From a virus: 64,000 nt of DNA. The stretch is from the IMG/VR virus record IMGVR_UViG_3300034072_000373, positions 12,030-76,029 of that record; one strand, 5' to 3'. Position 1 is the stretch's first letter. Every line of letters begins with the position of its first letter. The notes under the pieces are model-generated. The model made no database searches, was not told the origin of the DNA, and saw nothing but the letters and a program-made list of their open reading frames with translations. A program made the translations under genes and the position numbers. Shown piece after piece: positions 1,244 through 58,945 of the stretch.

Positions 1244-3533
1244 ACCAGAATCATCAGGGTTTCGACCAACAGAGAGTCAATCTCAGAAGCTGACAGAGTG
1301 GGAGAATGAACCCTCTCTGTTGGACCTGAAGAGTGATTTCGATGTGTCGAAAGATACTCACAATAAGCAGATGGTGAAGATTGACCACTGGAACGATCTT
1401 ATGTTCGTTCGTGGTAGGGCTAAACCTAATGCACCAAAGAATCGCTCTCAGGTGCAGCCAAAGCTCATTCGTCGTCAGGCTGAATGGCGTTACTCTGCAC
1501 TGACTGAACCATTCCTTGGTTCAAATAAGCTGTTCAAGGTTTCTCCAGTTACATGGGAAGACGAAGAGGCAGCAAAGCAGAATGAGCTACTTCTGAACCA
1601 TCAGTTCAGAGTAAAGCTGAATCGTGTCAAATTCATTGACGATTTCGTCCGTTCTACGGTCGATGAAGGGACTGCCATTCTTCGGTATGGTTGGCTCCGT
1701 AATGTCACGACTGTTAAGGAAACAGTTCCTACCTTCCAGCATTTTGCAATGACTACGGAAGAAGAGGCACAGGCTCTACAGCAGGCACTCCAACTTCGCG
1801 AAGAGAATCCCAGAGGATATGAAGATCAGGTTCCTCCTGAACTGAAAGCTGCTGTCGATTATTTTGATCAGACTCAGCAGCCTACTGTTGCTGTCCAGAA
1901 TGGTGTGCAGGAAATTGATGTAGAGAAGATTCTACAGAATGAGCCTACTGTTGAAGTGCTCAATCCTAAGAATGTGTATCTTGATCCCACCTGCAATGGG
2001 GACATGAATAAAGCACTGTTTACGGTTGTTGCTTTTGAAACCAACAAGGCTGAATTGCTGAAGAATCCAGAAACCTACAAGAATCTTGATAAGGTCAACT
2101 GGTCTACCAACACTCCAATTTCGGATGCTGAATATGAAACCCAGACACCAAATGTCTTCGAGTTCAAAGACGACTTGCGTAAGAAAGTCGTGGCGTATGA
2201 ATATTGGGGATTCTACGACATTCACGGTAACGGTGAACTTGTTCCCATTGTCGCTACGTGGATTGGTGACACCATCATTCGACTGGAAGAAAGTCCCTTC
2301 TCAAATAAGAAGCTTCCTTTCATCGTGGTTCCCTACCTCCCCGTTAAGCGTGAGCTATACGGTGAACCAGATGCCGAACTCCTAGAAGATAACCAGAAGA
2401 TTCAGGGTGCCCTAACTCGCGGTATCATTGATCTCTTGGGTCGATCTGCCAATAGCCAGATTGGTTTGGCTAAGGGTCTATTGGACCCTATGAATCGCAA
2501 TCGGTATGATCGTGGTGAGGATTATGAATTTAATCCCAGCATGAATCCTACTTCCCATATTATTGAGCATAAATACCCTGAACTACCTCAGTCAGCTATG
2601 ATTATGCTGAACTCTCAGAACCAAGAAGCTGAAGCACTGACTGGTGTGAAGAGCTTTGGTGGAGGTATGTCAGGTGAAGCTTATGGTGAAGTTGCTGCCG
2701 GTATTCGTGGTGTTCTGGATGCTGCTTCCAAGCGGGAAATGGCGATTCTCCGTAGGCTTGCTAAAGGCGTTACTGAATTGGGTCAGGCAATCATTTCGAT
2801 GAATGCCGATTTCCTGTCTGAACAGGAAGTGATTCGTGTAACCAATACTCAGTTTGCTGTAATCAAACGTGAAGAGATTCAGGGTCAGTTTGATCTTGAA
2901 GTGGATATCTCCACGGCAGAAGTCGATAATCAGAAGTCTCAAGATTTGAGCTTCATGCTTCAGACCATTGGTAACTCAATGGACTTTGGTATGACCAAGA
3001 TCATTCTGTCTGAAATTGCTGAACTGAAGCGTATGCCTGCCTTGGCTTATACGATTAAGACATTTGAGCCACAGCCTTCACCTGCACAACAGCGTCTAGA
3101 AGAACTGGCTATTCAGAAGGCTGAACTGGAGAATGAAGAACTCCAGTCACAGATTGAACTGAATAGGGCTAAAGCTCGTCAGGCAGAAGCTCAGGCTGAT
3201 AAGACTGATCTTGATTATGTTGAGCAGGAAACTGGCACAACTCATGCCAGAAACATGCAGAAGCAGAAAGCTCAGAGCGAAGGTAATCAGAATCTACAGG
3301 TTACTAAGGCTCTCACTACTCCAAAGAAGGAAGGTGAAGCCAAGCCTGACATTGATGCTGCTGTTGGTTTCAACGAACTAAGTAAGCGTCTAAGTAACGA
3401 TGGTATCCCTGATCGTGTTGACAACAGTTTTGAAAGGGACCAACAAGCAGAAAGTGATCCAAGGTTTAGCATCTATAGTAGGTTCTATCAGCCAAGCCTT
3501 GATCCAGCGTCTAACCCAAATATGAGTATTTAA
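1236..3533 (+). CDS. Portal protein (N4 gp59-like)
   Basis: [37 protein letters not shown] motifs typical of N4-like portals; GTG at 1236 after GGAGG RBS. Confidence 0.9.
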
Positions 3534-7005: not shown

Positions 7006-8565
7006 ATGAGTTGTGGTGCTGAAGTAACAGCCAAGAGATTGTATGATGCCCTCAAAGCAGACGCATCATTTGATTTCCCTGAACTGGATTGGGATGATCC
7101 AGATTTGCAATTTCCCCCTACAACGGGGGAATTGTATGAGCCAATTGAGAAGCTGAAGGATGAAGACCTAACCACTGGACTAATCAACGGTGATGGCACA
7201 TTCGATAAGCTGATGGCTTCAATCAAACATCACCTTCGTGGTGAATTTGAAGATGGCCGAATCACTGGTCGGGAATTCTCAGAAGCATATACCCAGAGCA
7301 CAGTTGCTGCTCTGGGAACTGCTGTTCAGTATCTTCTGGGTAAAGATCAGGCTAACTGGCAGGCAATCCTTCTACAGCTTCAGGCTAGAGAAGCTGCTAT
7401 TGCTGCAATCAATGCTAAGGTCACACTACGGACTTCAATGCTTCAGTATGAAGTTGTCCGTATGCAGGCTGAAATGTCAGTTATTGATTATGCCAATAAG
7501 AAGATTCAGTTGGCTATCGCTGATGAAGATTACTGCCTGAAGATTCAGCAAGGTGAACTGAATGAGATTGAAAAATCAACTCGTCAGTATAATCTTGATA
7601 CGATTCTCCCACTCCAGTCTCAGATGCTGACTGAACAGATTGCTGGGCAGGTTCTGGATAATACCGGACAGGGTATTCAGAATGATACTGCAACATATAA
7701 TCTAGATGAGATTCTGCCTAAGCAGGCTGCACAGCTTACAGTTCAGACTGATAATCTGACCAAGCAAGGTTTGGGCATCGTGGCTCAGACTGCAAATGTT
7801 GAATCTGACACTGCCATTAAGGGTTATCAGCTTTCGGATATGCTTCCTGCTGAACTGGCTCAGACAGAGGCTCAGACTACGAATCTTGGTAAGCAGGGTA
7901 TCATTCTGGATGATGAGCATGATCTCAATCTGCTGCGTGCTACAGGTCTTGGTATTGATAATAATACAAAGACTTACAATCTGAACACCATGCTTCCTGC
8001 ACAGATGGCAGGGGTTGTGGCACAGACTGATATGGTCACTGCACAGATCGTCAATGAAAGTAAGCGTGGTCTGGTTTTGGATCAGAATGTCCTTCAGCTT
8101 CAGGCTGAGATTCTGGGCATTGGTCTGGATAACGATACCAAGACTTACAATCTGGCCAACATTCTGCCTAAGAATCTTGAGCTACTGACGGCACAGGTTG
8201 CAGGTGTTGAAGCAGATACTGACGGTAAGATTTATAATGTTACCTATGTTCTGCCTAAGCAGCTTGAACTGGTTAGTGAACAGGTTGAGTCAACCAGAGC
8301 GCAAACCATGGATACCAGAACTGACGGCACCACTGTCATTACTGGTCTGCTTGGTAAACAGAAGGCACTCTATGAACAGCAGATCACCAGCTATCAGCGT
8401 GATAGTGAAGTGAAGGCTGCAAAGATGTTCATTGATGCTTGGATCACACAGAAGACCATTGATGAAGGTCTGCTCCCACCAGAGGGCTTCGAGAATGACA
8501 ATCTCGATTTGATTCTGGCGAAGCTGATCTCTAACAACGGTTTCGGAACAATGATTGCGGATTAA
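7006..8565 (+). CDS. Virion structural protein (N4 gp54-like) with internal repeats
   Basis: GDGTFDKLM N-terminal and GLLGKQKALY..QITSYQRD C-terminal motifs; six YNL..LP repeats in between. Confidence 0.75.
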   Translation: MSCGAEVTAKRLYDALKADASFDFPELDWDDPDLQFPPTTGELYEPIEKLKDEDLTTGLINGDGTFDKLMASIKHHLRGEFEDGRITGREFSEAYTQSTVAALGTAVQYLLGKDQANWQAILLQLQAREAAIAAINAKVTLRTSMLQYEVVRMQAEMSVIDYANKKIQLAIADEDYCLKIQQGELNEIEKSTRQYNLDTILPLQSQMLTEQIAGQVLDNTGQGIQNDTATYNLDEILPKQAAQLTVQTDNLTKQGLGIVAQTANVESDTAIKGYQLSDMLPAELAQTEAQTTNLGKQGIILDDEHDLNLLRATGLGIDNNTKTYNLNTMLPAQMAGVVAQTDMVTAQIVNESKRGLVLDQNVLQLQAEILGIGLDNDTKTYNLANILPKNLELLTAQVAGVEADTDGKIYNVTYVLPKQLELVSEQVESTRAQTMDTRTDGTTVITGLLGKQKALYEQQITSYQRDSEVKAAKMFIDAWITQKTIDEGLLPPEGFENDNLDLILAKLISNNGFGTMIAD

Positions 8566-8569
8566 GTCG

Positions 8570-11254
8570 ATGGGTTTGTTTTCGTCTAAGAAGAAGATTT
8601 TCGTAGCCACCTCCGTCTATAATATGGCGGGGGATGAGCTAGAGAGACGTAACTACCTCAAAGACATGATTATCAACAATGTCTTAGCCCCCCAGCCAGC
8701 AAGCTGGGGGGATTTGATCAATCAGAACTACCTCTATGGACCCGGCATGAAATTACGCCGTTGGTTCAAATGGGTAACTAAGCCCGGTAACTATAATCAT
8801 GTAGGGCTGCCTACTGGTGTCCTCTACGGCTCACTCTCACTAGATAATGATCTAGTTATCCCTCAGCTTCCTGAAGACCCTAGCGCTACCATTCTGGTGC
8901 AGGAGTCTCATGTTGGTGGGGGTGATTTCTCATGGTGGGCAGATCAGTGGATTCTCCAGAATGAGCCAGACCTGATCGACACGGAATTTAAAATTGACTA
9001 TGACGATACAACTTCTCAGATCGTTATCACTCGTCCAGATGCTTCTACAGTGTCTTTTGCTCCAGTGGGATATAATCAGAACCAGAACTATATCTTCGTC
9101 AATTATGTTGTGGCAGAAGATTTGGCAGATGAAAGTGTGGTCACAGGCACACCTACAAACAGTGATCCACTCCCTTCAGAGTCTGGATGGGATTTGGTAT
9201 CTACTAACACAACCAATGTTCCTGTTACGCTGAAGACGTATGAGAAGGTTGATATCACCTATAGTGATGCCACACCTCCGTCTTCATCTGGACCCAATGA
9301 GACTGGTTCTACAGATACAAATTATGACCTCATTGAGCGTCATCTACGTAAAGAAGAATACACTGGTAGCTCATCTACTGGTGATGAAACTGCATCTGTA
9401 AAAACAGAGCGATATACCAATGATGGTAAGAAAGTAGTGGCCGTAGAAGATGTGGATGTTGTTAATGAAGACATTGGGGGTGGTGTCACTAAGACAACTA
9501 CTACAACTACTTATACCGATACTTTGGTTAATGATCGTTGGTATCGTGATGACACGCAACGTGTGAATATCCGTAGCTGGTCTACGGCTAAGATTTTCAT
9601 TTATCAGATTGGTTCAGGCAATGCTGCACTGGATGCTTTGATTGATGAATCTGCCATGAGTGGGACTCAGTTCTTCCCACACATTCCAGTCCGTATCGAC
9701 AATAAGATGATTAGCGAAATGGGTCCAACCTATGACGCTGCATTTGCTCAAGCTGATAAAGCCTATAAGCGTGCTGTCGGGGATCATATTGATACCCTGA
9801 TTGAGAAGGTAGCTGAGAATGAAAGTCTGAAAGATATTGACTACACCATGGTTGTCTTTGGTGTTCAGGCCAATGTCATTGAGAACGCATGTCGGAAATA
9901 CATGTTCAGATTCTTCCAGAAGCTGTCCGAATCTCAGTTTGCTGACCAATCTGATTATGTCACTTGGGAAACCAAGAAGACCGGATTTGAGGCAGCAATG
10001 CAAGCATGGCTAGATTGGAAAGCTGCTCAGAGCAATGAGTCTGATCCAGACTTTGGCACTCCTGAACCGACGATTCCTGACTATAGCTATCTGCCCAGCA
10101 ATCTAATGCGGGTAGCTACTACAGGTGACTATGGTTCAGAATTCAATATGGAAATCTCATGGGCTGCTATTGAGCATGAGGAATTCACTGGTGAGGCTAA
10201 GCCTAATGTAAAAGTTGGGGAGGTTTGGTTCCAGCAGATTGGGTTCGAGGACACTCTCTACAATATGTATGCTAAGAGAGGTAAGCTGGGTGAGTATGAA
10301 TCACGGGTCAATGTTGTCCGTGGATATTACCAGACAAGTGCCAATACGTATGAACGTCTGACCATCATCAACATGATTCATAAGAATTATGTGTATAAGG
10401 GTAAATCTGTCGAGACTGACTTTGCATTTGGTCTGACTGATCCAGAAGAGTCAGAATTCATTGTGCCACTGCATTACCCTACTTTCAGGGAAATGAGTCT
10501 GGTGGATTCTACCCAGATGGCAACAGCATGTATCTTGCTGGCATTTAATTGCTACAAGGTAAAGAAGATCAAATGGTATCAGCGGGGCATCTTCAAGATT
10601 GTTCTGGTGGTAGCAGTGATTGCTGTTTCCATTGCCTTGGCTCCAACCACTGGTGGTGCTTCACTTGGTATTCTTGGAACTAATATTGCTGTGGGATCAG
10701 CCATTGGTTTGACTGGTCTAGCTGCTGCTATTGCTGGGGCCATTGCAAATGCAATCGTTGCTGCAATCATCATGCAGGCAGTGAGTATGATTGCTACCGG
10801 AATCTTTGGTGCAAAGATTGGTCTGATCCTCACAGCTATTGCTGCTGTCGTTGTCATGAATGTTGGGTCTATGTTTGGTCCCAATGGTTCCATGGCTTTG
10901 AATTGGGACAGCCTTATGAGGGCAGATAATCTTCTCAAGATGACTAGCTCTGTAGGCAATGCCTATCAGGCATATGTCGGCGGGAAGATTATGGATTATC
11001 AGGAGAAGACTGCTGACCTCATGAAAGAGTATCAGTCTAACCTGAAGGATATTCGACAGAGCTATATTGACCAAGGGTTGTATGGTAATGCAACGATTGA
11101 CCCAATGCAGTTTGTCCAAAACAACTTTGCATTGGAAAACTCTGATACGTTTTTGGCTAGGACACTTTTGACGGGGACAGATATTGCAGAGATGAGCCAG
11201 AATCTCTTGACTGATTTCTCGACTTTAACCCTCAGCACTGAACTCCCAATATAA
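8570..11254 (+). CDS. Virion protein (N4 gp53-like) with hydrophobic C-terminal region
   Basis: MGLFSSKKKIFVATSVYNMAG start, KWYQRGIFK followed by long Ala/Gly/Ile TM-like stretches. Confidence 0.78.
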   Translation: MGLFSSKKKIFVATSVYNMAGDELERRNYLKDMIINNVLAPQPASWGDLINQNYLYGPGMKLRRWFKWVTKPGNYNHVGLPTGVLYGSLSLDNDLVIPQLPEDPSATILVQESHVGGGDFSWWADQWILQNEPDLIDTEFKIDYDDTTSQIVITRPDASTVSFAPVGYNQNQNYIFVNYVVAEDLADESVVTGTPTNSDPLPSESGWDLVSTNTTNVPVTLKTYEKVDITYSDATPPSSSGPNETGSTDTNYDLIERHLRKEEYTGSSSTGDETASVKTERYTNDGKKVVAVEDVDVVNEDIGGGVTKTTTTTTYTDTLVNDRWYRDDTQRVNIRSWSTAKIFIYQIGSGNAALDALIDESAMSGTQFFPHIPVRIDNKMISEMGPTYDAAFAQADKAYKRAVGDHIDTLIEKVAENESLKDIDYTMVVFGVQANVIENACRKYMFRFFQKLSESQFADQSDYVTWETKKTGFEAAMQAWLDWKAAQSNESDPDFGTPEPTIPDYSYLPSNLMRVATTGDYGSEFNMEISWAAIEHEEFTGEAKPNVKVGEVWFQQIGFEDTLYNMYAKRGKLGEYESRVNVVRGYYQTSANTYERLTIINMIHKNYVYKGKSVETDFAFGLTDPEESEFIVPLHYPTFREMSLVDSTQMATACILLAFNCYKVKKIKWYQRGIFKIVLVVAVIAVSIALAPTTGGASLGILGTNIAVGSAIGLTGLAAAIAGAIANAIVAAIIMQAVSMIATGIFGAKIGLILTAIAAVVVMNVGSMFGPNGSMALNWDSLMRADNLLKMTSSVGNAYQAYVGGKIMDYQEKTADLMKEYQSNLKDIRQSYIDQGLYGNATIDPMQFVQNNFALENSDTFLARTLLTGTDIAEMSQNLLTDFSTLTLSTELPI

Positions 11255-11265
11255 AGGATTATGAA

Positions 11266-11757
11266 ATGGGACAACCAACTCCTGATAACCCTCTGGGTCT
11301 AGATTACACTGGTGGCAATGGGTTCGGTGCGTCAACACTGCTCAGCCCCGGACAGATTACATCAAAAGCAATTCCAACCCTTGGGTATGATACAAGTGGA
11401 TTTTGGGGAGGCTCAAGTGATGTTCTCACTAATGGTTCCTCAACTATTCCAGTTGGTTCTGGTGGGCAGGGTGGTGGATTCTTCGGTGGCATGAATGGGA
11501 TGCAATCCGTTGGTGCTGTTCTGGGTGGTCTACAGTCACTCAGTAACATGTTCCTCGGATTCCAAGCTCTGAGCCAAGCAAAGAAGCAGTTTAAGACACA
11601 GCGTGCATTCTCAAACGCAAATCTTGAGAATCAGGTTAAGAGCTACAATACTGCTTTGGAAGATAGGGCTAGAAGCAGGGCTGCTGTTGAAGATCAGTCT
11701 GCATCCCAAGCTCAGGGTTACATTGATAAGAACCGTCTGAACTTCTCTAGAATCTAA
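11266..11757 (+). CDS. Internal virion/ejection protein (N4 gp52-like)
   Basis: Gly-rich, Cys-free; NLENQVKSYNTALEDRARSR motif; position. Confidence 0.7.
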   Translation: MGQPTPDNPLGLDYTGGNGFGASTLLSPGQITSKAIPTLGYDTSGFWGGSSDVLTNGSSTIPVGSGGQGGGFFGGMNGMQSVGAVLGGLQSLSNMFLGFQALSQAKKQFKTQRAFSNANLENQVKSYNTALEDRARSRAAVEDQSASQAQGYIDKNRLNFSRI

Positions 11758-11768
11758 GGAATATTAAT

Positions 11769-13844
11769 ATGGCTGCACTAACTTGGAGAAACGTTGCTGC
11801 CCCTGATTTCTCAGGAGTTCAGGGGGGCATCAGCAATGCTGGTGAATTCTTTAATCGTGCTTTCTCCGGTGGTCAGAAGACTGTGGAGAATATTCAGAAT
11901 ATCCGTGAGGATAATGCTGTAAAGGAAGTCTTGGGCAGAGCCTTGGCTTCCAATGATCCTGCTGCAATTCAGGCAATGGCTGCTGAAGCTGCTCAGAATC
12001 CTAATTTCACTCTTCGTGGTTTGGATACTCTGAACCGTCAGGTGGATACCCTTCAGCGTAGGAATCTTACTGAAGAACAGATTCTTGGTGCCAGACAGGG
12101 TAGAGAACAGGGAGCTACTCTGTTTAATCGTGGTGAGCAGGAATATAGCGCAAGAGAAGCTGCCAGAGGTGAAATCCTGAAACTATATGGTTCAGGTATG
12201 ACACCTGATAAGATTGCTCAAGCTGCTGCATCCAATCCAATTCTGGCTGCATTGCCTACCAAGGATTTGATGGGAATTATTGATGACTCCTACAATCGTA
12301 GGGATCGCAATCTAAATTATGATATTCGCTCAACTGAATTTGCAAACAGTCAGGCAGATCGTAATGACGCATTTGTGGTAGCAGACGCTCTATCCACCAT
12401 TGACCAATCTTCATTGACTGATGAAGAAAGATTCTCCGCACTTGAGAGAATGCGGGGTAATCTCACCCCTAGACAATATACACTTGCCCGTAATCGTCTT
12501 ATGGGTGGTGGAACAGGTGGTGCTGGCGGAGGTGAATTTGCTGCTCCTGCATCTGGCTCATTTTCTGCTGGTGGTTCCAATTATGCTTTTGGAGCGCCAC
12601 AGAAAGCATATGCAGATGTCTTCTCCAGTGCTGGTGTCAGTAACAATGTTGTCGCTGGTCTACTAGGTAATGCCCACGTTGAGGGTGGTTGGACTGGTAA
12701 AGAAGGTGACGGTGGTGCTGCTGGTGGTATTGTCCAGTGGAGGGATGGAAGACGGGATGCTTTCATTCAGCGTAATGGTGTTGACCCAACAAAAGCATCA
12801 CCTGAAGTTCAGGCAAGACATGTGATGTGGGAACTTTCTACTCCTGAAGGTAGAAAGGTTGCTGGTATTACGGAACAGCAAGCCAATGCCATTTTGAATG
12901 CTAAGTCACCTGAAGAAGCTGCTGAATATATTGACCGTTTTTATGAGCGTTCATCTGGTCAGCATCGTCAACAGCGTATTGCTGCTGCGGCTGCATATGG
13001 TCAATTGACTCGTCCCGGTGATCCTGTTGCTAATGGGCTTCAGGGAATTGCAAACAGTGTGGACACTGATCGTGCAAGAGCACAACAGGGCGGTTCAGTT
13101 GGTGCCAGAATTCTCCGTGAGAATGCTGGTTCAAAGAAGGATCGTGCTGATGTTATCAGTGATGTGATGACTTCTCTTGGAGCCTCTGACAGAGGAACAG
13201 TTGAGAATATCTTCAATGATATGCGTAACCGTTTCCTTGCCAATGGTTGGGAAGCTCCAAATGATGCAATCATTGGTGCCGCTCTAAAGACTGGTTCAAC
13301 CTATGATCGTAGACTTGGTGATCGTATCTGGGATTGGACAGGTAATCTTTTTGGAGCCACGGATGCTGTATCAGGCGGACTTCAGGTAGATAGAGATAAT
13401 CTCTATAATCGTCTGAAGGATATTGTGCAGAGTCCTCAAGCTTCAAATGTGGCTGTTGTGGAAGCTCAGAGAAATGCTGGGGAACAAGCTGCATCTGTTG
13501 CAGATGCACAGTATCAGCAGGCAAGAGCACAACGTGAATATGCAGAGAATGAGGTTAGATCAGGCCGTAGACCTAACATCAATCTCAAACCATATTATGA
13601 TCGTGAGAACCAAGCACTAGCAACTTCACAGGCTGCAAATGCTGCTGTTAGGAATTCAGGTTTGACTAATCCCGGTGTTCAGCCTGTTGGTTCCTCAACA
13701 GGTAAACCTACTCAGGGAACACCTAAGTCAACTGATGACTTTGTGCGTAATGCTGCTGATCGACGTAGGCAAACTGCACCGCCTCCAAGAGCATCCAATG
13801 GATGGCAATTGCTCAAAGATACGGTAACTGGTATCTTCGACTAA
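11769..13844 (+). CDS. Ejection protein (N4 gp51-like) with a phage tail lysozyme-like domain
   Basis: LTWRNVAAPDF start; AGLLGNAHVE..GGIVQW..FYER..R motifs; Cys-free. Confidence 0.75.
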   Translation: MAALTWRNVAAPDFSGVQGGISNAGEFFNRAFSGGQKTVENIQNIREDNAVKEVLGRALASNDPAAIQAMAAEAAQNPNFTLRGLDTLNRQVDTLQRRNLTEEQILGARQGREQGATLFNRGEQEYSAREAARGEILKLYGSGMTPDKIAQAAASNPILAALPTKDLMGIIDDSYNRRDRNLNYDIRSTEFANSQADRNDAFVVADALSTIDQSSLTDEERFSALERMRGNLTPRQYTLARNRLMGGGTGGAGGGEFAAPASGSFSAGGSNYAFGAPQKAYADVFSSAGVSNNVVAGLLGNAHVEGGWTGKEGDGGAAGGIVQWRDGRRDAFIQRNGVDPTKASPEVQARHVMWELSTPEGRKVAGITEQQANAILNAKSPEEAAEYIDRFYERSSGQHRQQRIAAAAAYGQLTRPGDPVANGLQGIANSVDTDRARAQQGGSVGARILRENAGSKKDRADVISDVMTSLGASDRGTVENIFNDMRNRFLANGWEAPNDAIIGAALKTGSTYDRRLGDRIWDWTGNLFGATDAVSGGLQVDRDNLYNRLKDIVQSPQASNVAVVEAQRNAGEQAASVADAQYQQARAQREYAENEVRSGRRPNINLKPYYDRENQALATSQAANAAVRNSGLTNPGVQPVGSSTGKPTQGTPKSTDDFVRNAADRRRQTAPPPRASNGWQLLKDTVTGIFD

Positions 13845-48323: not shown

Positions 48324-48400
48324 TGGCGCTCCCTGAAGGACTCGAACCCTCAACCAACCGACTAGAACTCGGTTGCTCTATCCATTTGAGCTAAGGGAGC
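48324..48400 (-). tRNA. tRNA-Arg(UCU)
   Basis: GCTCCCT/AGGGAGC acceptor + G + CCA; D arm GCTC/GAGC with A20; anticodon stem ACCGA/TCGGT, loop GT-TCT-AG; T arm GAGGG-TTCGAGT-CCTTC. Confidence 0.92.
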
Positions 48401-48629: not shown

Positions 48630-48861
48630 CTGCCGATTCCAGTTCTTCGAGCGTAATTCTGATAGCAGAGCCATCAGCGAATTTAACATCCCGTTCAACA
48701 CGTTTGGTTCCTGATTCCATAACCAGATCAGCACATAGTGCTAGATAAACATGTTGTGTGATGTTGGCGACACGTTTGATTGGCTGACGGTATTTTTCTT
48801 CCGTCAGCCAGAGATCACCCGTTTCTGTGTCCATACGGACAGACAGCTTGTTTGGGTTCAT
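48607..48861 (-). CDS. Hypothetical protein
   Basis: ATGA overlap with thyX. Confidence 0.6.
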   Translation of the reverse strand: MNPNKLSVRMDTETGDLWLTEEKYRQPIKRVANITQHVYLALCADLVMESGTKRVERDVKFADGSAIRITLEELESADVTVNPS

Positions 48862-49736
48862 AGTCCAAGAATCTTTCGATGCTGGATAAACCCAACAAAA
48901 TTACCCCATTTGGAAGTATCATCAGAATTGAGGACACCCTTTGGATCAGGGGTAGCCTGATGCTCACAAGGTGAAGCATGAGCAGGCTTTGCCACGATCA
49001 GCTTAGCATACAGCTTGATATCGTCACTGATGGTGGTGGGCTTACCTTCATGAGTAAAGTAAGACACACGAGCACATCGAGCCACGGAAACCTGAAGCAG
49101 TAGAAGCTGCACTTCAGTCTTGGAGACTGGATAGTTTTCATGGTGACATGCCTTAATGTAGTCATGGGCAGCCAGTTCATCCTCAGCGGTGACATATGGT
49201 AGATGCCATTCACCAACCTTCAGATACTTTGGCTTGGATGCTTCCATGGCTGCTTTCATCTGAATAGCAAGCTCATGAATCTCAGGCTGTGCATCTTTAT
49301 GAGCACGAAGCTCAAAGAAGTTATCCCATTCGGTCGAGGTAACGACCACACGGATATGTGCCCATGGTTCCAGAATACGATTGGCAATCTGCTTATGCAG
49401 ACCATGCTTAATCATATTCTCAGCAACCAGAATGTTTAGGTTCATAGCTTGGAGCCAATGAGCCTTAACACTTTCCAGTGCATCGCCTTCCAATTCAGGA
49501 CCAGCCTGCATACCGGGTTGATGACTGCCCCAATAGATTGGCCATGCTGGTTCACGCTTCAGATCAGCGATCATACGAGCAATGGGAATTGCACGACTGG
49601 ATGAGGCATTACGACTCATACAACGATGAGTCATAAATTCAGAGTGGATGAACCGTGGATACAGCAGTTCCATGGTTGTGATTCGCTTACCGTCTGGGGA
49701 GACGGAATCAGCGATAATCTTTGCAGAAATCGTCAT
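48858..49736 (-). CDS. thyX: FAD-dependent thymidylate synthase
   Basis: IHSEFMTHR.MSRNASSSRA, HKQIANRILEP, NFFELR...AQPEI, HASPCEH. Confidence 0.88.
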   Translation of the reverse strand: MTISAKIIADSVSPDGKRITTMELLYPRFIHSEFMTHRCMSRNASSSRAIPIARMIADLKREPAWPIYWGSHQPGMQAGPELEGDALESVKAHWLQAMNLNILVAENMIKHGLHKQIANRILEPWAHIRVVVTSTEWDNFFELRAHKDAQPEIHELAIQMKAAMEASKPKYLKVGEWHLPYVTAEDELAAHDYIKACHHENYPVSKTEVQLLLLQVSVARCARVSYFTHEGKPTTISDDIKLYAKLIVAKPAHASPCEHQATPDPKGVLNSDDTSKWGNFVGFIQHRKILGL

Positions 49737-54823: not shown

Positions 54824-55249
54824 TCAGAACGTTCGGATTTCGCCGGAAAGCTCAATAGTAGTTTCCCTATTAGGCTTAGTGCGAATCCTGCCGATAGATA
54901 CGACCTTATTTGGATCATATCCGTTAGCCTTGAGGCGGGAACGAATAGCTCGTGCAGATTCCTTCATGACATAACCCACATGGGTCCAATCATATCCGGT
55001 CTCTATTTCACCAAATTGGACTTTGGGAATTGCTGCATAGACAGCAATTGCATTATCCTTGTCGTATGGGTTTCCGGGTTCAGGAACAAGTTGAACCATG
55101 TTCCCTATATTCTTCTTCTGCCACTTGTCGAAGTCTTTCCGATGGTGAGCACCAACAGCAGAGACTTTTATGAACGCAATTTCATTTGCGTATCTTTCCG
55201 ACCAAGTGCCGAGTTCGAGTTTACGGATACCCCACAGATCACCAGACAT
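54824..55249 (-). CDS. HIRAN-like domain ORF, probably expressed as a -1 frameshift extension of the upstream gene
   Basis: LVPEPGNPYDKDNAIAVY...HVGYV motif; no SD before ATG 55249; frame open and protein-like for 42 codons upstream. Confidence 0.7.
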   Translation of the reverse strand: MSGDLWGIRKLELGTWSERYANEIAFIKVSAVGAHHRKDFDKWQKKNIGNMVQLVPEPGNPYDKDNAIAVYAAIPKVQFGEIETGYDWTHVGYVMKESARAIRSRLKANGYDPNKVVSIGRIRTKPNRETTIELSGEIRTF

Positions 55250-55308
55250 TACATCTGTAATCAGTGCATTATCGTCCGGGATTTCTCCCGTCTCTGGGTC
55301 AAATGATT

Positions 55309-55375
55309 CCCCTGAATCATAGAGTTGAAAGATACTTTCCTTCTTCCCTTTTGGTTCAGGGGTTACTTGAAAGGG
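55309..55375 (-). promoter_or_regulatory. Putative -1 programmed ribosomal frameshift signal
   Basis: C CCT TTC heptamer (55375-55369), 6-nt spacer, 8-bp stem CCCCTGAA/TTCAGGGG. Confidence 0.7.
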
Positions 55376-55983
55376 TTCTTGAAACCGCCATCCCCCATGA
55401 GCATCATCAGCATCATGGGATTGGAGAACAGACCTCCGGCATTACCACCGCTCATCATGAGCAGAGGCAGCATGGAGGACATATCCTTGTCACCACTCAT
55501 CAGCATGAGAGGCAGGAGGCTATTCATGTCCATGGTTCCAGAGTTACCTTCACCACCGAACATCGAACCGAATGAACGAACGACAGTCAGACCGTCCTTA
55601 ACGCCCAGCATGGAAACACGCTTGGGACGGAAACGGCTGATATGGCCCTGAACATTGATCGTCTGAATCGAAGCCTTTGCAGCTTCTTCGTCGGAAACCG
55701 ACTTTTTGTCGCCGTCTTCCAACAGGAAACCATATGCCCTGCCATCGGATACAAGAATGTCCCCACGCTTCACTTCGGTAGCAGGCGTCAGCATTGCAAA
55801 TGCTGGGATTTCCATCGAGAAGAAATCCAATGGATTCTGGTCCAGAACATCATCCTTGCCCAGAGTCACCAGACCAGCATTGGTCTTGATGCCTGAAGTG
55901 CCGGATGCAAGATCGTAGCTCACATTGTCGATGGGACGAAACATCGTCTGCATCGCCTTATTCATCGTGCTTTTCATATCCAT
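55363..55983 (-). CDS. Hypothetical protein with Met-rich repeated C-terminus
   Basis: AAGGA RBS; LLPLMLMSG / MLPLLMMSG / NPMMLMMLMG repeats. Confidence 0.75.
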   Translation of the reverse strand: MDMKSTMNKAMQTMFRPIDNVSYDLASGTSGIKTNAGLVTLGKDDVLDQNPLDFFSMEIPAFAMLTPATEVKRGDILVSDGRAYGFLLEDGDKKSVSDEEAAKASIQTINVQGHISRFRPKRVSMLGVKDGLTVVRSFGSMFGGEGNSGTMDMNSLLPLMLMSGDKDMSSMLPLLMMSGGNAGGLFSNPMMLMMLMGDGGFKNPFK

Positions 55984-56068
55984 TTTCAGTCTTCCTTCTT
56001 TGTAGGGTTCGGTCGTGGTCTTATGCTATCACCGTTCTAGCGCTCAAAATCAGATACCACTTCAGTCT

Positions 56069-56445
56069 ATCAGCGCCTAACCACACCAATAGAATACAAT
56101 CCGCATTTCCTATCGTTACCGAATAGGAAGCCGTAGCGGAGGTTAGCTGATGAAATTTTAGAGGCCACATCCCCCGATGTGATTAAGCATTAAGCACCTC
56201 TGCCCTGATCCAAGTGAGACACACCACATAACGCCGGGGAGAATTTCGGCAGATGGTAGTCATCTTCTTGGTTCGGGAAACTAAGTGGGTATCATCGTGG
56301 ATCATGACTCCATCACATCAGCCTACCCAAGCTATCCCGCTGCTATATCCGACTACATGGCCCATTGGGATTGAGCGTCATTAAACCATGCAGAAGCATT
56401 CCATTCTCAGAGAGCTACTCCGATTCCAAAGCCCGTTGCAACAGG
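56069..56445 (-). ncRNA. Cluster of putative structured RNA modules 3' of the hammerhead
   Basis: No plausible ORF; abutting closed stems at 56353-56393, 56275-56338, 56210-56271, 56160-56201 and 56069-56151. Confidence 0.55.
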
Positions 56446-56462
56446 TCTATGTATTTAGGAAT

Positions 56463-56510
56463 GTATGTGACACCTAAGTGTTTCGGCTCATTAAGCCTCA
56501 TCAGACATAC
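56463..56510 (-). ncRNA. Type I hammerhead ribozyme
   Basis: GTATGT-CTGATGA-GGCT(TAATG)AGCC-GAAA-CAC(TTAG)GTG-TC^ACATAC: complete core, three stems, GUC cleavage site. Confidence 0.9.
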
Positions 56511-56515
56511 TTGTA

Positions 56516-56848
56516 TTGGCACTTCTGTTGTCAGGCAGTTCCCGCCCCTGTGCTTTTACGCAGCCATGCGGTAGTCGGAGACTACATCGTTGTCGTTGAC
56601 ATTTAAGTTTCAACTGTCAGCTTAGGGCTGCCAATCCGATAGCGTTCTGAATCAATCCACATAGTCGATCCTAGTTCACCCCCATCAACTACATTGGTTC
56701 GAAGTGTTCATACCACGTATTCGGGCGTCTCCGGGTTTCCAACCCTAGTATGGCGGATACCATACCGAACCAATGCAGATGGTGGAGGTGACGGGTGCTG
56801 CCCCCGTGTCCTCATGCTTCAATCATCATTCCGAATTACTATCATCGC
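56516..56848 (-). ncRNA. ssrA: Circularly permuted (two-piece) tmRNA, alphaproteobacterial type
   Basis: Acceptor piece ...GACACGGG-GGCAGCA-CCCGT-CACCTCC-A-CCA (ends 56780), intervening hairpin, then GGGGGTGAACTAGGATCGAC (starts 56683); G3.U70; tag VNDNDVVSDYRMAA* at 56600-56556; outer ends approximate. Confidence 0.92.
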
Positions 56849-56898
56849 TTTAAGGTAGTCCATCCTCTGGAACGTGTCCAGAGGAACGATAACGAGAA

Positions 56899-57147: not shown

Positions 57148-57708
57148 GGTTCTTCCTTCCATAATTTATGAGGACCGTGAACAAGCTCTCTGGCTCTGGT
57201 ATTGCTTACAGCATTGTCACATTCCAACGGTGGCCTACCGTGGTTATTCACGGCCCGCATAAAATATGCTTTGGTGCCTATCAGGGCGTTAGTCCTAATA
57301 AATTAGGTAACACTCCTGATAGGACACGCTCTAAAACCCGCTGCGTAGGCGAAGTGTTAACCCGCATAGGGATTACTCCCATTAGTGCTTTGTTTCGTCT
57401 TCATGTTACTACCGTTGGGTTGGCGAATTTAGCGGATGACAGTCTGTCTCGCCACTAGACAGACCTCCTGCTCAGATTGGCGGGAATGCTAAACCGATAG
57501 TCCTCATTAAGTCTGGCTCACAGACACCAAAATCTTTGAATGAATAGCGCCCAGATGAGTAGCGTTATCTCTCATCCTATATATCTTGCAGGATATACTA
57601 ATCTCCTGCTGCAACAGGAAATGGGCACGACAGCATTGCATGGTATCCTCCCTGATTACGGGAACCATGGAAAGGATTGACCATCCTTCAATGCTGTAAT
57701 TTAATTTT

Positions 57709-57807: not shown

Positions 57808-57981
57808 CGGTTTTCCCTCATCTAACAGGTCATGACTCCGTTAGGTCGTCACAAATGAGATAAAACCAATTCTAATAAGGCAGGTAGGCAGGCTACAGGC
57901 CAATTAAGTATCGCTCTACTGAAAGGTTCTTTGCGATACACCCTTTACAGATTCAGTTCTAACCGCCTTTGAATCTCGTAG

Positions 57982-58015
57982 AAAAGCCCACCAGCCATGA
58001 AGCGACTAGTGGGCT
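57982..58015 (-). terminator. Terminator-like hairpin inside the RNA island
   Basis: AGCCCACTAGTCG...TGGCTGGTGGGCT-TTT; short U tract. Confidence 0.45.
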
Positions 58016-58337
58016 AACTCAGAATCTCAACAGGAAGATTGTGCGGCTATAAGCCATCCTGTTAACCGGCTCTGATACCGGATCGGGTAACGGGGGTTTC
58101 CATTTCCATCCCATTGGCTCTTACGAACCAAACGAAACAAATATTTCTACCTAAGTTACATTGGGCTTCTCACCCCTTTGCTCCGTTCTCGGAGCATCTG
58201 AAATGAGTCCGGGGACTCGAAGACTCAGATGCTTCAATTGGTCGAGGACACCAATTCGCTTGACGGACCAGCCCGGTCAGACTTTGGGCCTGTCCTAGTT
58301 CACTCATTGTGAGCGAACCCAAAAAACATACGGCTGA

Positions 58338-58880
58338 TTACGCAGTAACGTTGATCGTAACGGAATCAGTCATACCGGAATCAAGCACGGTAATTTCAAC
58401 CGTGGTGGTTCCAATCTTCTTTGGCACGATTGCACCAGTCTTATCGACTTCAGCAATAAGTGAATCTGCACTGACCAGCTTCACATCCTTCTTCGTGGCT
58501 CCAGCAGGGGAGACAGTGAAGACAGGGTGGAATGCACCAGTTGCAAGGGAGATATCGTATGAGGTGGCACCAAATTCAACACCAGTGCTACGCACATAGG
58601 TTTCATCAATGATAGTCACCTTCGCCATATCGGTGATATTATCAGGCCACTGAAGATCACTGGTGGCAACTGAACCATCGACATTGGATACCTTATAGAG
58701 AATATCCCGGACATGCTGATAAAGCACATGGCTCAGATCAGCATGATAACCGAACTCTTCATCAGTGGGACCATGAGAGAACTTACCGATGATTTCAGAA
58801 CCACCGGGAGCAATAGCACCGTCAACCTGAACAGTTGCAGTGCGTGTATCGAAATTGAAGGCTACCTGAAAATCTGCCAT
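58338..58880 (-). CDS. Ig-like (Big_2) capsid decoration protein (N4 gp17-like position)
   Basis: TVSPAGATKKDV...S....AEVD..G.I.....GTTTVEIT..D; start MADFQ after AAGGA; follows RNAP2. Confidence 0.78.
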   Translation of the reverse strand: MADFQVAFNFDTRTATVQVDGAIAPGGSEIIGKFSHGPTDEEFGYHADLSHVLYQHVRDILYKVSNVDGSVATSDLQWPDNITDMAKVTIIDETYVRSTGVEFGATSYDISLATGAFHPVFTVSPAGATKKDVKLVSADSLIAEVDKTGAIVPKKIGTTTVEITVLDSGMTDSVTINVTA

Positions 58881-58893
58881 CTTGACTATCCTT

Positions 58894-58930
58894 AAAAAAA
58901 TACGGCCAACAGGGGAATACCCTGTTGGCC
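58894..58930 (-). terminator. Terminator after RNAP2
   Basis: GGCCAACAGGG-TATTC-CCCTGTTGGCC-GTA-TTTTTTT. Confidence 0.85.
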
Positions 58931-58945
58931 ACATATATAGAATAA

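Follow-up and report, generated by a model that had tools for sequence, protein, structure and literature searches.

What does a lytic phage without an SmpB protein do with a ribosome-rescue RNA of its own, and how would the ends of such an RNA be made? The question is raised by a 64,000-nucleotide stretch of viral DNA (hereafter the window), which comprises bases 12030-76029 of the 76,029-bp IMG/VR virus record IMGVR_UViG_3300034072_000373. A reading of its letters without database searches (the sequence-only reading) had placed a two-piece transfer-messenger RNA (tmRNA) with a variant tag at 56516-56848. We find that window 56514-56884, on the minus strand, is an intact, phage-encoded, circularly permuted tmRNA gene (ssrA) of the alpha type, directly followed by a candidate hammerhead ribozyme. 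The anatomy of the gene and the changes that separate it from its relatives make it probable that this is a functional ssrA gene of a lytic N4-like phage.

Anatomy of the permuted tmRNA gene

Two Rfam models match the locus above their cut-offs: RF04321 (tmRNA_permuted) at 90.8 bits against a cut-off of 47 (E 3.6e-16), and RF01849 (alpha_tmRNA) at 76.9 bits against 50 (E 3.9e-19). With its threshold lowered to 90% (-ps90), ARAGORN calls a 'Permuted' tmRNA with the tag VNDNDVVSDYRMAA, the same tag as in the sequence-only reading, all of whose listed sequence features are present. The coordinates given there do locate the gene; the alpha model, however, spans 56514-56884, and the hammerhead then continues to 56463. 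The parts of the gene are as follows.

56864-56884, minus strand: hairpin CCUCUGGA-CACGU-UCCAGAGG (direct reading; inside the RF01849 match)
56780-56843, minus strand: acceptor piece (RF04321 and RF01849 alignments, ARAGORN -ps90, pair conservation and covariation)
56807-56791, minus strand: T arm ACGGG-GGCAGCA-CCCGU (direct reading)
56790-56780, minus strand: 3' acceptor strand CACCUCC (56790-56784), then A (56783) and CCA (56782-56780) (direct reading)
56684-56779, minus strand: intervening spacer, 96 nt between CCA and G1, with a 13-bp closing stem CUGCAUUGGUUCG/CGAACCAAUGUAG
56518-56683, minus strand: coding piece (direct reading, Rfam alignments, ARAGORN -ps90)
56683-56677, minus strand: 5' acceptor strand GGGGGUG (direct reading)
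56600-56556, minus strand: tag reading frame, resume codon GUC at 56600-56598 and stop UAA at 56558-56556 (ARAGORN -ps90)
56550-56518, minus strand: 3' pseudoknot CAGGGGCGGGAACUGCCUGACAACAGAAGUGCC (stem 2 covariation among 14 relatives)

The gene is permuted because the 5' acceptor strand, with G1 at 56683, lies downstream of the CCA end at 56780. The acceptor piece contains the P2 strands GAUAG, UUCGGAAU and GCAU, the T arm, the 3' acceptor strand, the discriminator and an encoded CCA. The coding piece, which begins GGGGGUGAACUAGGAUCGAC at 56683, contains a D-arm analogue (GAACUAGGAUCGAC), the P2 partner strands AUGU, AUUCAGAA and CUAUC, a pseudoknot-1 region, the resume context, the tag frame and the 3' pseudoknot. 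The tRNA-Ala identity set is complete (7-bp acceptor stem GGGGGUG/CACCUCC, G3.U70, A73 and CCA). As the sequence-only reading had proposed, the pieces can pair through helix P2, which has three segments: GAUAG/CUAUC (5 bp), UUCGGAAU/AUUCAGAA and GCAU/AUGU. Of the two segments named in that reading, UUCGGAAU/AUUCAGAA forms with 7 of 8 pairs and one G.A mismatch. The 3' pseudoknot consists of stem 1 (CAGG/CCUG), stem 2 (GGAAC/GUGCC) and an A-rich loop, CAACAGAA; the sequence of stem 2 differs in most lineages, with the pairing kept.

Between the pieces, the 96-nt spacer folds at -36.9 kcal/mol (z -3.7), and none of 200 shuffles folds equally well. The relatives' spacers at the equivalent position are likewise stem-closed and measure 14-131 nt. 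Presumably, the spacer is cut out on maturation. On the upstream side, the hairpin at 56864-56884 lies 15 nt past the stop codon of an 87-aa open reading frame (ORF) and 20 nt before the acceptor piece, and may be a processing or protective hairpin. No promoter-like site was found between this ORF and the tmRNA.

A distant N4-like phage without smpB

The record is 100% complete by CheckV. Among the window proteins are a 3457-aa virion RNA polymerase (vRNAP; phrog_2206, 2105 bits) and both subunits of an RNA polymerase II (RNAPII), namely RNAP2 (phrog_2051, 533 bits) and RNAP1 (phrog_2166, 335 bits). The giant virion polymerase and the two-subunit RNAPII, both present, are the markers of Schitoviridae. 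Further genes encode rIIA, a DNA polymerase and an N4-type portal. Against 50,697 deposited phages, the top matches of RNAP2 are Schitoviridae of Erwinia, Xanthomonas, Rhizobium and others, with only 54-58% identity; the phage is therefore a distant, uncultured N4-like phage (Schitoviridae) of lytic type, and its genome is complete. About 2 kb separate RNAP2 from the tmRNA downstream of it, and all surrounding genes are on the strand of the tmRNA. SmpB (PF01668) was not found anywhere in the 76,029-bp record by profile match at E <= 1, which bears out, and extends to the complete record, the absence that had been noted for the window.

Related tmRNAs and selection on the helices

The sequence-only reading had also called for a survey of Schitoviridae for ssrA. 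Here, 79 other IMG/VR contigs encoding N4-type RNAP2 were surveyed (a single-protein query retrieved no RNAP2 relatives from IMG/VR, and an alignment query was used), and permuted tmRNAs were collected from viral and bacterial contigs by pattern search. Three of the 79 (G449, G426 and G430) carry a permuted tmRNA above the Rfam cut-off; thus, about 4% of uncultured N4-like contigs have one, mostly in a single genomic slot. G449 (72 kb, 56% G+C, tag VNDNDESVPVLRLAA) shows the order found here, with RNAP2, an Ig-like gene, the tmRNA and, further downstream, an ATPase. In G426 (62 kb, tag ANDNSPVMALRLAA) the tmRNA likewise follows RNAP2 and the Ig-like gene. The slot in these two contigs is 2-3 kb downstream of RNAP2, and the ATPase is seen in the window and in G449. 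The third, G430, is a complete 74-kb contig with direct terminal repeats, which has a beta-type two-piece tmRNA (RF01850, 104 bits against a cut-off of 84; tag ANDDAFAPQLRLAA) in another slot, beside tRNA-Pro (L358, G430:C1:17000-22000, locus 2109-2623, plus strand). The G430 gene also lies near homologues of rIIA and of the window genes at 48858-49736.

Of the three, the tmRNA of G449 is the closest to the present one, the two being 86% identical in the acceptor piece and 74% identical over 175 nt of the coding piece. About equally close is that of a different phage type, L252/L249 (coding piece 76.6% identical over 171 nt). When 37 pairs of P1, the T arm, P2 and the 3' pseudoknot were scored against G449, 23 were identical, 2 showed one-sided changes with the pair kept, 8 were compensatory and 4 were unclear owing to alignment shifts. 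Four of the compensated pairs are in P2, three of them in GAUAG/CUAUC, which reads GGCCG/CGGCC in G449, and one in GCAU/AUGU. G3.U70 is invariant in all 14 related tmRNAs, acceptor-stem pair 6 covaries between A-U and G-C, and the tag keeps the pattern VNDND...R-(L/M)-A-A. The compensatory pairs, the invariant G3.U70 and the kept tag pattern argue for a working RNA rather than a decaying passenger. In addition, the same arrangement is seen in L266, a 1561-bp contig of a separate JGI metagenome with 97.9% identity over 55227-56765, so that an assembly artefact can be dismissed. A single base of the tmRNA and hammerhead stretch is different in L266; there, a U-A pair of P2 has become U.G, and the pair is kept.

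RNAalifold, applied to 103 diverse tmRNAs, recovered the acceptor stem, the T arm and only parts of P2 and of the 3' pseudoknot. MAFFT had aligned the coding pieces poorly, which explains the partial recovery, and the closer clade was therefore used. Two N4-like contigs of 41% G+C (L350/L351, from G439 and G440) have what ARAGORN at lowered threshold calls a non-permuted tmRNA-like gene, with the tag ANDNVVLMAA and only 29 bits to RF04321; it could represent a tmRNA of one-piece or reduced form in additional N4-like phages. Contigs G417-G421, whose tmRNAs have VNDN tags, gave no N4-like RNAP2 match, and G409, in which a tmRNA lies near a homologue of the 206-aa protein that neighbours the present gene, gave no vRNAP match with the query used.

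Several observations weigh against an intact and useful tmRNA. ARAGORN at default settings misses the gene, its sole call in the window being a tRNA-Arg elsewhere. The pseudoknot-1 region has a hairpin, GGCAGC/GCUGAC, that is kept in L252, and no sterically sound pseudoknot could be drawn there by hand. Stem 2 of the 3' pseudoknot carries an A.G mismatch. Finally, most close N4-like relatives are without a tmRNA, and since they manage without one, any benefit to the phage would be conditional. Among seven isolated Schitoviridae scanned, including three Rhizobium phages and two roseophages, no tmRNA was found.

Tag frame and resume codon

The tag frame reads GUC AAC GAC AAC GAU GUA GUC UCC GAC UAC CGC AUG GCU GCG UAA, that is, 14 codons for VNDNDVVSDYRMAA and a stop, and its end fits the expected hydrophobic-Ala-Ala followed by a stop codon. 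In the Rfam alignment, GUC occupies the position of the consensus resume codon GCA. It is preceded by UUAAAU, such that the resume context UAAAU-GUC preserves the consensus U at -5 and A at -4. A valine resume codon had been singled out as a variant by the sequence-only reading. The codon is indeed there, at the consensus position, but it is not special, as precedents exist. The natural resume codon of Helicobacter pylori SsrA is GUA (Val), and either GUA or GUC is functional in the Escherichia coli tmRNA (PMC2862035). Tags beginning VNDN occur in some 20 viral contigs, in 'Alphaproteobacteria bacterium 43-37' and in a Phreatobacter metagenome-assembled genome (MAG), where the tmRNA with this tag is the sole permuted one found. 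Judged by its sequence, the tag looks like an ordinary degron.

VNDN tags were also seen in alpha-type permuted tmRNAs on contigs binned in a 'Lysobacterales' MAG (L130/L148, JADKCY010000012.1) and in a 'Solirubrobacterales' MAG (L160). These contigs, in gammaproteobacterial and actinobacterial bins, respectively, are probably phage or mis-binned.

A hammerhead at the 3' end of the coding piece

The RNA downstream of the tmRNA contains one further element.

56463-56510, minus strand: type I hammerhead, starting 7 nt past the 3' pseudoknot of the tmRNA

It reads GUAUGU-CUGAUGA-GGCUUAAUGAGCC-GAAA-CACUUAGGUG-UC-ACAUAC (56510-56463), and the cut is predicted after GUC, between UC and ACAUAC (56469 and 56468). 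The CUGAUGA and GAAA core segments are flanked by stem I (GUAUGU/ACAUAC, 6 bp), stem II (GGCU/AGCC, 4 bp) and stem III (CAC/GUG, 3 bp), and all core positions are canonical (C3 U4 G5 A6 U7 G8 A9, G12 A13 A14, A15.1-U16.1 and C17). The minimum-energy fold is the three-way junction. This is the single hammerhead core in the whole window, and the full descriptor gave 1 match there against 0 in 300 shuffled windows. The hammerhead of contig L266 is identical in sequence. A type III reading, as in the RF00008 alignment, was rejected, for it puts C at 16.1 and breaks A15.1-U16.1, whereas the type I reading is fully canonical.

What stands at this position in related genes is the most telling evidence on what the hammerhead might do. 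In both G449 and L252 the conserved pseudoknot is followed immediately by a tRNA-Met gene, and in L010 by a tRNA gene; in G426 an intrinsic terminator (a hairpin and then a T run) comes next. The tRNA-Met, the tRNA, and the hairpin with its T run are three ways to end one RNA, and the hammerhead is a fourth. Since related tmRNA genes have a tRNA gene or a terminator there, the hammerhead is a credible candidate for making the 3' end of the tmRNA. More specifically, it may generate the 3' end of the coding piece, in place of the RNase P-cut tRNA gene or the intrinsic terminator of its relatives, a role that we assign tentatively and rate at slightly below an even chance. In a T4-like contig (L027), a hammerhead lies about 50 nt past the tmRNA, directly ahead of the next ORF. 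A pattern search of viral contigs for a tmRNA 3' end joined to a hammerhead gave one match (L129), which was rejected as a chance match in coding DNA without a tmRNA.

Other points count against this role. The hammerhead falls under the Rfam cut-offs, with 26.8 bits for RF00008 (E 0.011; cut-off 48.5) and 27.5 for RF03152 (cut-off 56.3). Minimal hammerheads with short stems are often low-scoring. Stem III has only 3 bp, and the cut would leave the coding piece with a 49-nt tail unless it is trimmed. Furthermore, the hammerhead core of G426, 82% identical, lies 1.4 kb upstream of its tmRNA; the pairing of tmRNA and hammerhead is therefore not fixed, and hammerheads belong to this RNA-rich slot generally.

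Hammerheads of phages have been proposed to cut long polycistronic transcripts into units by Perreault et al. (2011), who do not mention tmRNA (PMC3088659). Our literature searches found no published hammerhead adjoining a tmRNA gene, nor any tmRNA maturing via a ribozyme in its own transcript. The hammerhead at the 3' end thus appears to be the sole feature of this locus that goes beyond the literature searched.

Origin of the gene and the host

The closest tmRNAs are all on viral-class contigs, namely N4-like G449 and L252/L249, a 53-kb phage of another type with 64% G+C. A 31-nt module of the 3' pseudoknot (GGGGCGGGNACUGCCUGNCAACAGAAGUGCC, with two positions left free) recurs in 10 viral contigs (L258-L265, L249 and L252) that range from 38 to 65% G+C, and had no match in 185,579 representative genomes of bacteria and archaea (GTDB). 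The viral tmRNAs that bear the module have different tags, including ANANTSPEMALAA, ANDNFEPEMALAA-like and VNDNDEGTALRLAA. Because the module is near-identical across differing phages while stem 2 is variable in other lineages, shared descent with exchange among phages would account for its distribution, and the pattern suggests such exchange rather than repeated capture from hosts.

All that is left in L264 is the end of the tag and the 3' module, located behind an ORF, apparently the remains of a tmRNA. In the viral contigs L259 and L262, the tmRNA spacer is long and apparently has a small hydrophobic ORF.

When the gene was compared by BLAST with 401 sampled alphaproteobacterial genomes, only the tRNA-like core of about 33 nt aligned. 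BLASTN of the tmRNA region found no match among the 50,697 phage records, and a 36-nt query from the tRNA-like domain retrieved from them Erythrobacter phage vB_EliS-L02 and chance matches only. The sequence-only reading took the host to be probably alphaproteobacterial, and such a host is plausible, a fair guess from the type of the gene. The guess is nevertheless unsafe, because phage Melnitz has an alpha-type ssrA and infects a gammaproteobacterium (PMC9004378).

Proposed function and alternatives

If the gene works as its anatomy suggests, the following sequence of events can be proposed. The tmRNA would be transcribed with its neighbours, in the gene block downstream of the RNAPII genes; the middle genes are presumably read by the phage's own T7-like RNAPII. 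Folding of the precursor would pair the two halves of the tRNA-like domain, and host enzymes would excise the 96-nt spacer, with RNase P cutting at G1 (56683) and 3' trimming proceeding to the CCA, as extrapolated from the two-piece tmRNA of Caulobacter. By its anatomy and by comparison with related genes, the hammerhead might then cleave itself after C56469, freeing the coding piece from the downstream mRNA with a defined 3' end. Helices P1 and P2 would hold the two pieces together. Host alanyl-tRNA synthetase would charge the RNA through G3.U70 and A73, and, as the phage encodes no SmpB, the SmpB that binds it would be that of the host. Lack of smpB is usual for phage tmRNAs, which require the host protein. 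On entering a stalled ribosome, the complex would let translation resume at GUC and add (A)VNDNDVVSDYRMAA, so that the tagged protein ends in AVNDNDVVSDYRMAA. Through its NDN motif and its C-terminal AA, the tag would offer the signals usually read by the SspB adaptor and the ClpXP protease. What the phage probably gains is additional capacity for ribosome rescue, together with recycling of amino acids, while infection yields many broken mRNAs.

Other roles can be imagined for the same gene. The phage tmRNA might compete with that of the host for SmpB and stalled ribosomes so as to mark proteins with a tag, ...DYRMAA, that alters the rate of degradation or the protease involved. Buchholz et al. 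name selective tagging as a possible role of phage tmRNAs (PMC9004378), and in E. coli the identity of the tag affects phage growth (PMC2862035). The middle of the present tag is unlike every other tag examined, and its end is MAA instead of the common LAA or VAA. Yet NDN at the N-terminus and AA at the C-terminus are kept, as in an ordinary degron, and the endings RLAA, RVAA or RIAA of the relatives suggest drift within one functional class. Such reprogramming, which overlaps with ribosome rescue and does not exclude it, is unlikely to be what the gene is for. The sequence-only reading had suggested that the phage RNA perhaps replaces a host tmRNA cleaved during defence. As such a spare part for counter-defence, a phage copy of divergent sequence would restore rescue after a host defence or toxin has cleaved the cellular tmRNA. 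Phage-borne tRNAs can replace cleaved host tRNAs, and the failure of BLAST to align anything outside the tRNA-like core to the 401 alphaproteobacterial genomes fits a divergent copy. However, the analysis identified no tmRNA-targeting defence system and recognised no anti-defence genes beside the gene, leaving this role distinctly improbable.

Less likely still is that the RNA acts as a decoy that binds SmpB and blocks trans-translation in the host, as proposed for the RNA of mycobacteriophage DS6A, which has a tRNA-like domain only. A molecule of this kind strongly inhibits tmRNA (PMC4131195), and a phage without its own smpB fits the picture. A decoy, however, has no need of the full tag frame, the resume context and the 3' pseudoknot, all of which are kept here, and the tag stays open, with VNDND...R-x-AA, in the two closest tmRNAs, G449 and L252. 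As for a non-functional passenger, whether a recent capture of a host ssrA, a remnant of an attachment site or an assembly chimera, tmRNA genes are common integration sites of prophages, and fragments do occur in phage genomes (PMC9004378). This gene, by contrast, is complete, sits in a phage of the lytic N4-like type and recurs in the same arrangement in a second metagenome; it shows compensatory changes since its divergence from the syntenic copy of G449, and its exact 3' module is absent from the 185,579 representative genomes. We regard the passenger as the least probable of these explanations. A tmRNA that serves ribosome rescue during infection is the reading we prefer.

Genomic surroundings

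The block that contains the tmRNA and the RNA-rich stretch has its upstream limit at a hairpin directly after RNAP2.

58900-58934, minus strand: hairpin resembling a strong intrinsic terminator, with a T run after its 15-bp stem

In the interval that separates the Ig-like gene from the 87-aa ORF, upstream of the tmRNA, the stretches 57163-57510 and 57822-58340 (minus strand) fold far better than their shuffles (z -4.4 and -4.2; 0 of 100 each), with no Rfam family match at E <= 1. Downstream of the hammerhead, at 55984-56468, folding was not significant relative to shuffles (z -1.6). A 141-aa HIRAN-domain protein (PF08797, E 5.6e-8) is encoded at 54824-55249 (minus strand), between the 206-aa conserved protein and the ATPase. 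Homologues of the neighbour proteins (P0001-P0054) are encoded on Logan and ENA contigs, at identities from 99% down to 53%. The sole tRNA gene of the phage is a tRNA-Arg(UCU) at window 48324-48400 (minus strand), detected by ARAGORN and by Rfam (58.1 bits). In the N4-like Erwinia phage phiEaP8 (MH160392.1; L123, locus 8122-12868), the depositors' annotation of the slot between RNAP2 and the ATPase lists a serine protease, a ClpX-like ATPase and an FtsH-like metalloprotease; cargo related to proteolysis may be a recurrent feature of the slot in which the tmRNA lies here.

Comparison with known systems

Phage tmRNAs have been described in mycobacteriophages and in Bacillus phage G by Hudson et al. 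(2014; PMC4131195). A later survey of 18,146 phage genomes by Buchholz et al. (2022) turned up tmRNA in 402, 53 of them two-piece and most of these from aquatic phages, and its authors discussed the same functional ideas as are considered here (PMC9004378). None of the 133 tmRNA-bearing phages in Table S1 of that report is N4-like; they are myo-, sipho-, crAss-like or other types. Thus, the two-piece tmRNA of phages is already known from other phage families, and what is new is the family, Schitoviridae, and a detail, the hammerhead. The present case adds N4-like phages to the groups known to carry their own ribosome-rescue RNA, and the default settings of ARAGORN, which were used in the 2022 survey (PMC9004378), miss this gene. 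The recurrent slot in N4-like contigs offers a manageable setting in which to ask how a lytic phage profits from additional trans-translation, and the interchangeable 3'-end devices at one position (tRNA-Met in G449, terminator in G426, hammerhead here) amount to a small natural experiment in the release of stable RNAs from polycistronic phage transcripts. Knowledge of tmRNA function itself is unchanged.

Four known systems can be set beside this locus. The two-piece tmRNA of Alphaproteobacteria, exemplified by ssrA of Caulobacter crescentus (RF01849; Keiler, Shapiro and Williams 2000, as cited in PMC9004378), has the same gene order, with the acceptor piece first, then the spacer and the coding piece. 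Common to both are the T loop GGCnGnA, G3.U70, the P2 helix between the pieces, an xNDN...AA tag and a 3' pseudoknot with the loop CAACAGAA; they differ in that the present gene is encoded by a lytic phage without smpB, has GUC for GCA and has a hammerhead in place of a terminator. H. pylori SsrA likewise resumes at a valine codon, but it is a one-piece, bacterial tmRNA with an unrelated tag. The phage and prophage hammerheads of type I (PMC3088659; RF00163, RF03152) resemble the one described here in their consensus core, their three stems and their location between genes in a long phage transcript, whereas this one directly abuts a stable RNA gene, that of the tmRNA. The published two-piece tmRNAs of phages (PMC9004378) include those of OM43 phage Melnitz, pelagimyophages HTVC008M and Mosig, Caulobacter phiCbK-like phages, roseophages DSS3P8 and DSS3_MAL1, and cyanophages. 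As here, a complete permuted ssrA is carried by a virulent phage without smpB, and host factors are presumed to serve it; unlike in those phages, the tmRNA of the present phage is followed by a hammerhead, and no glutamine riboswitch was found.

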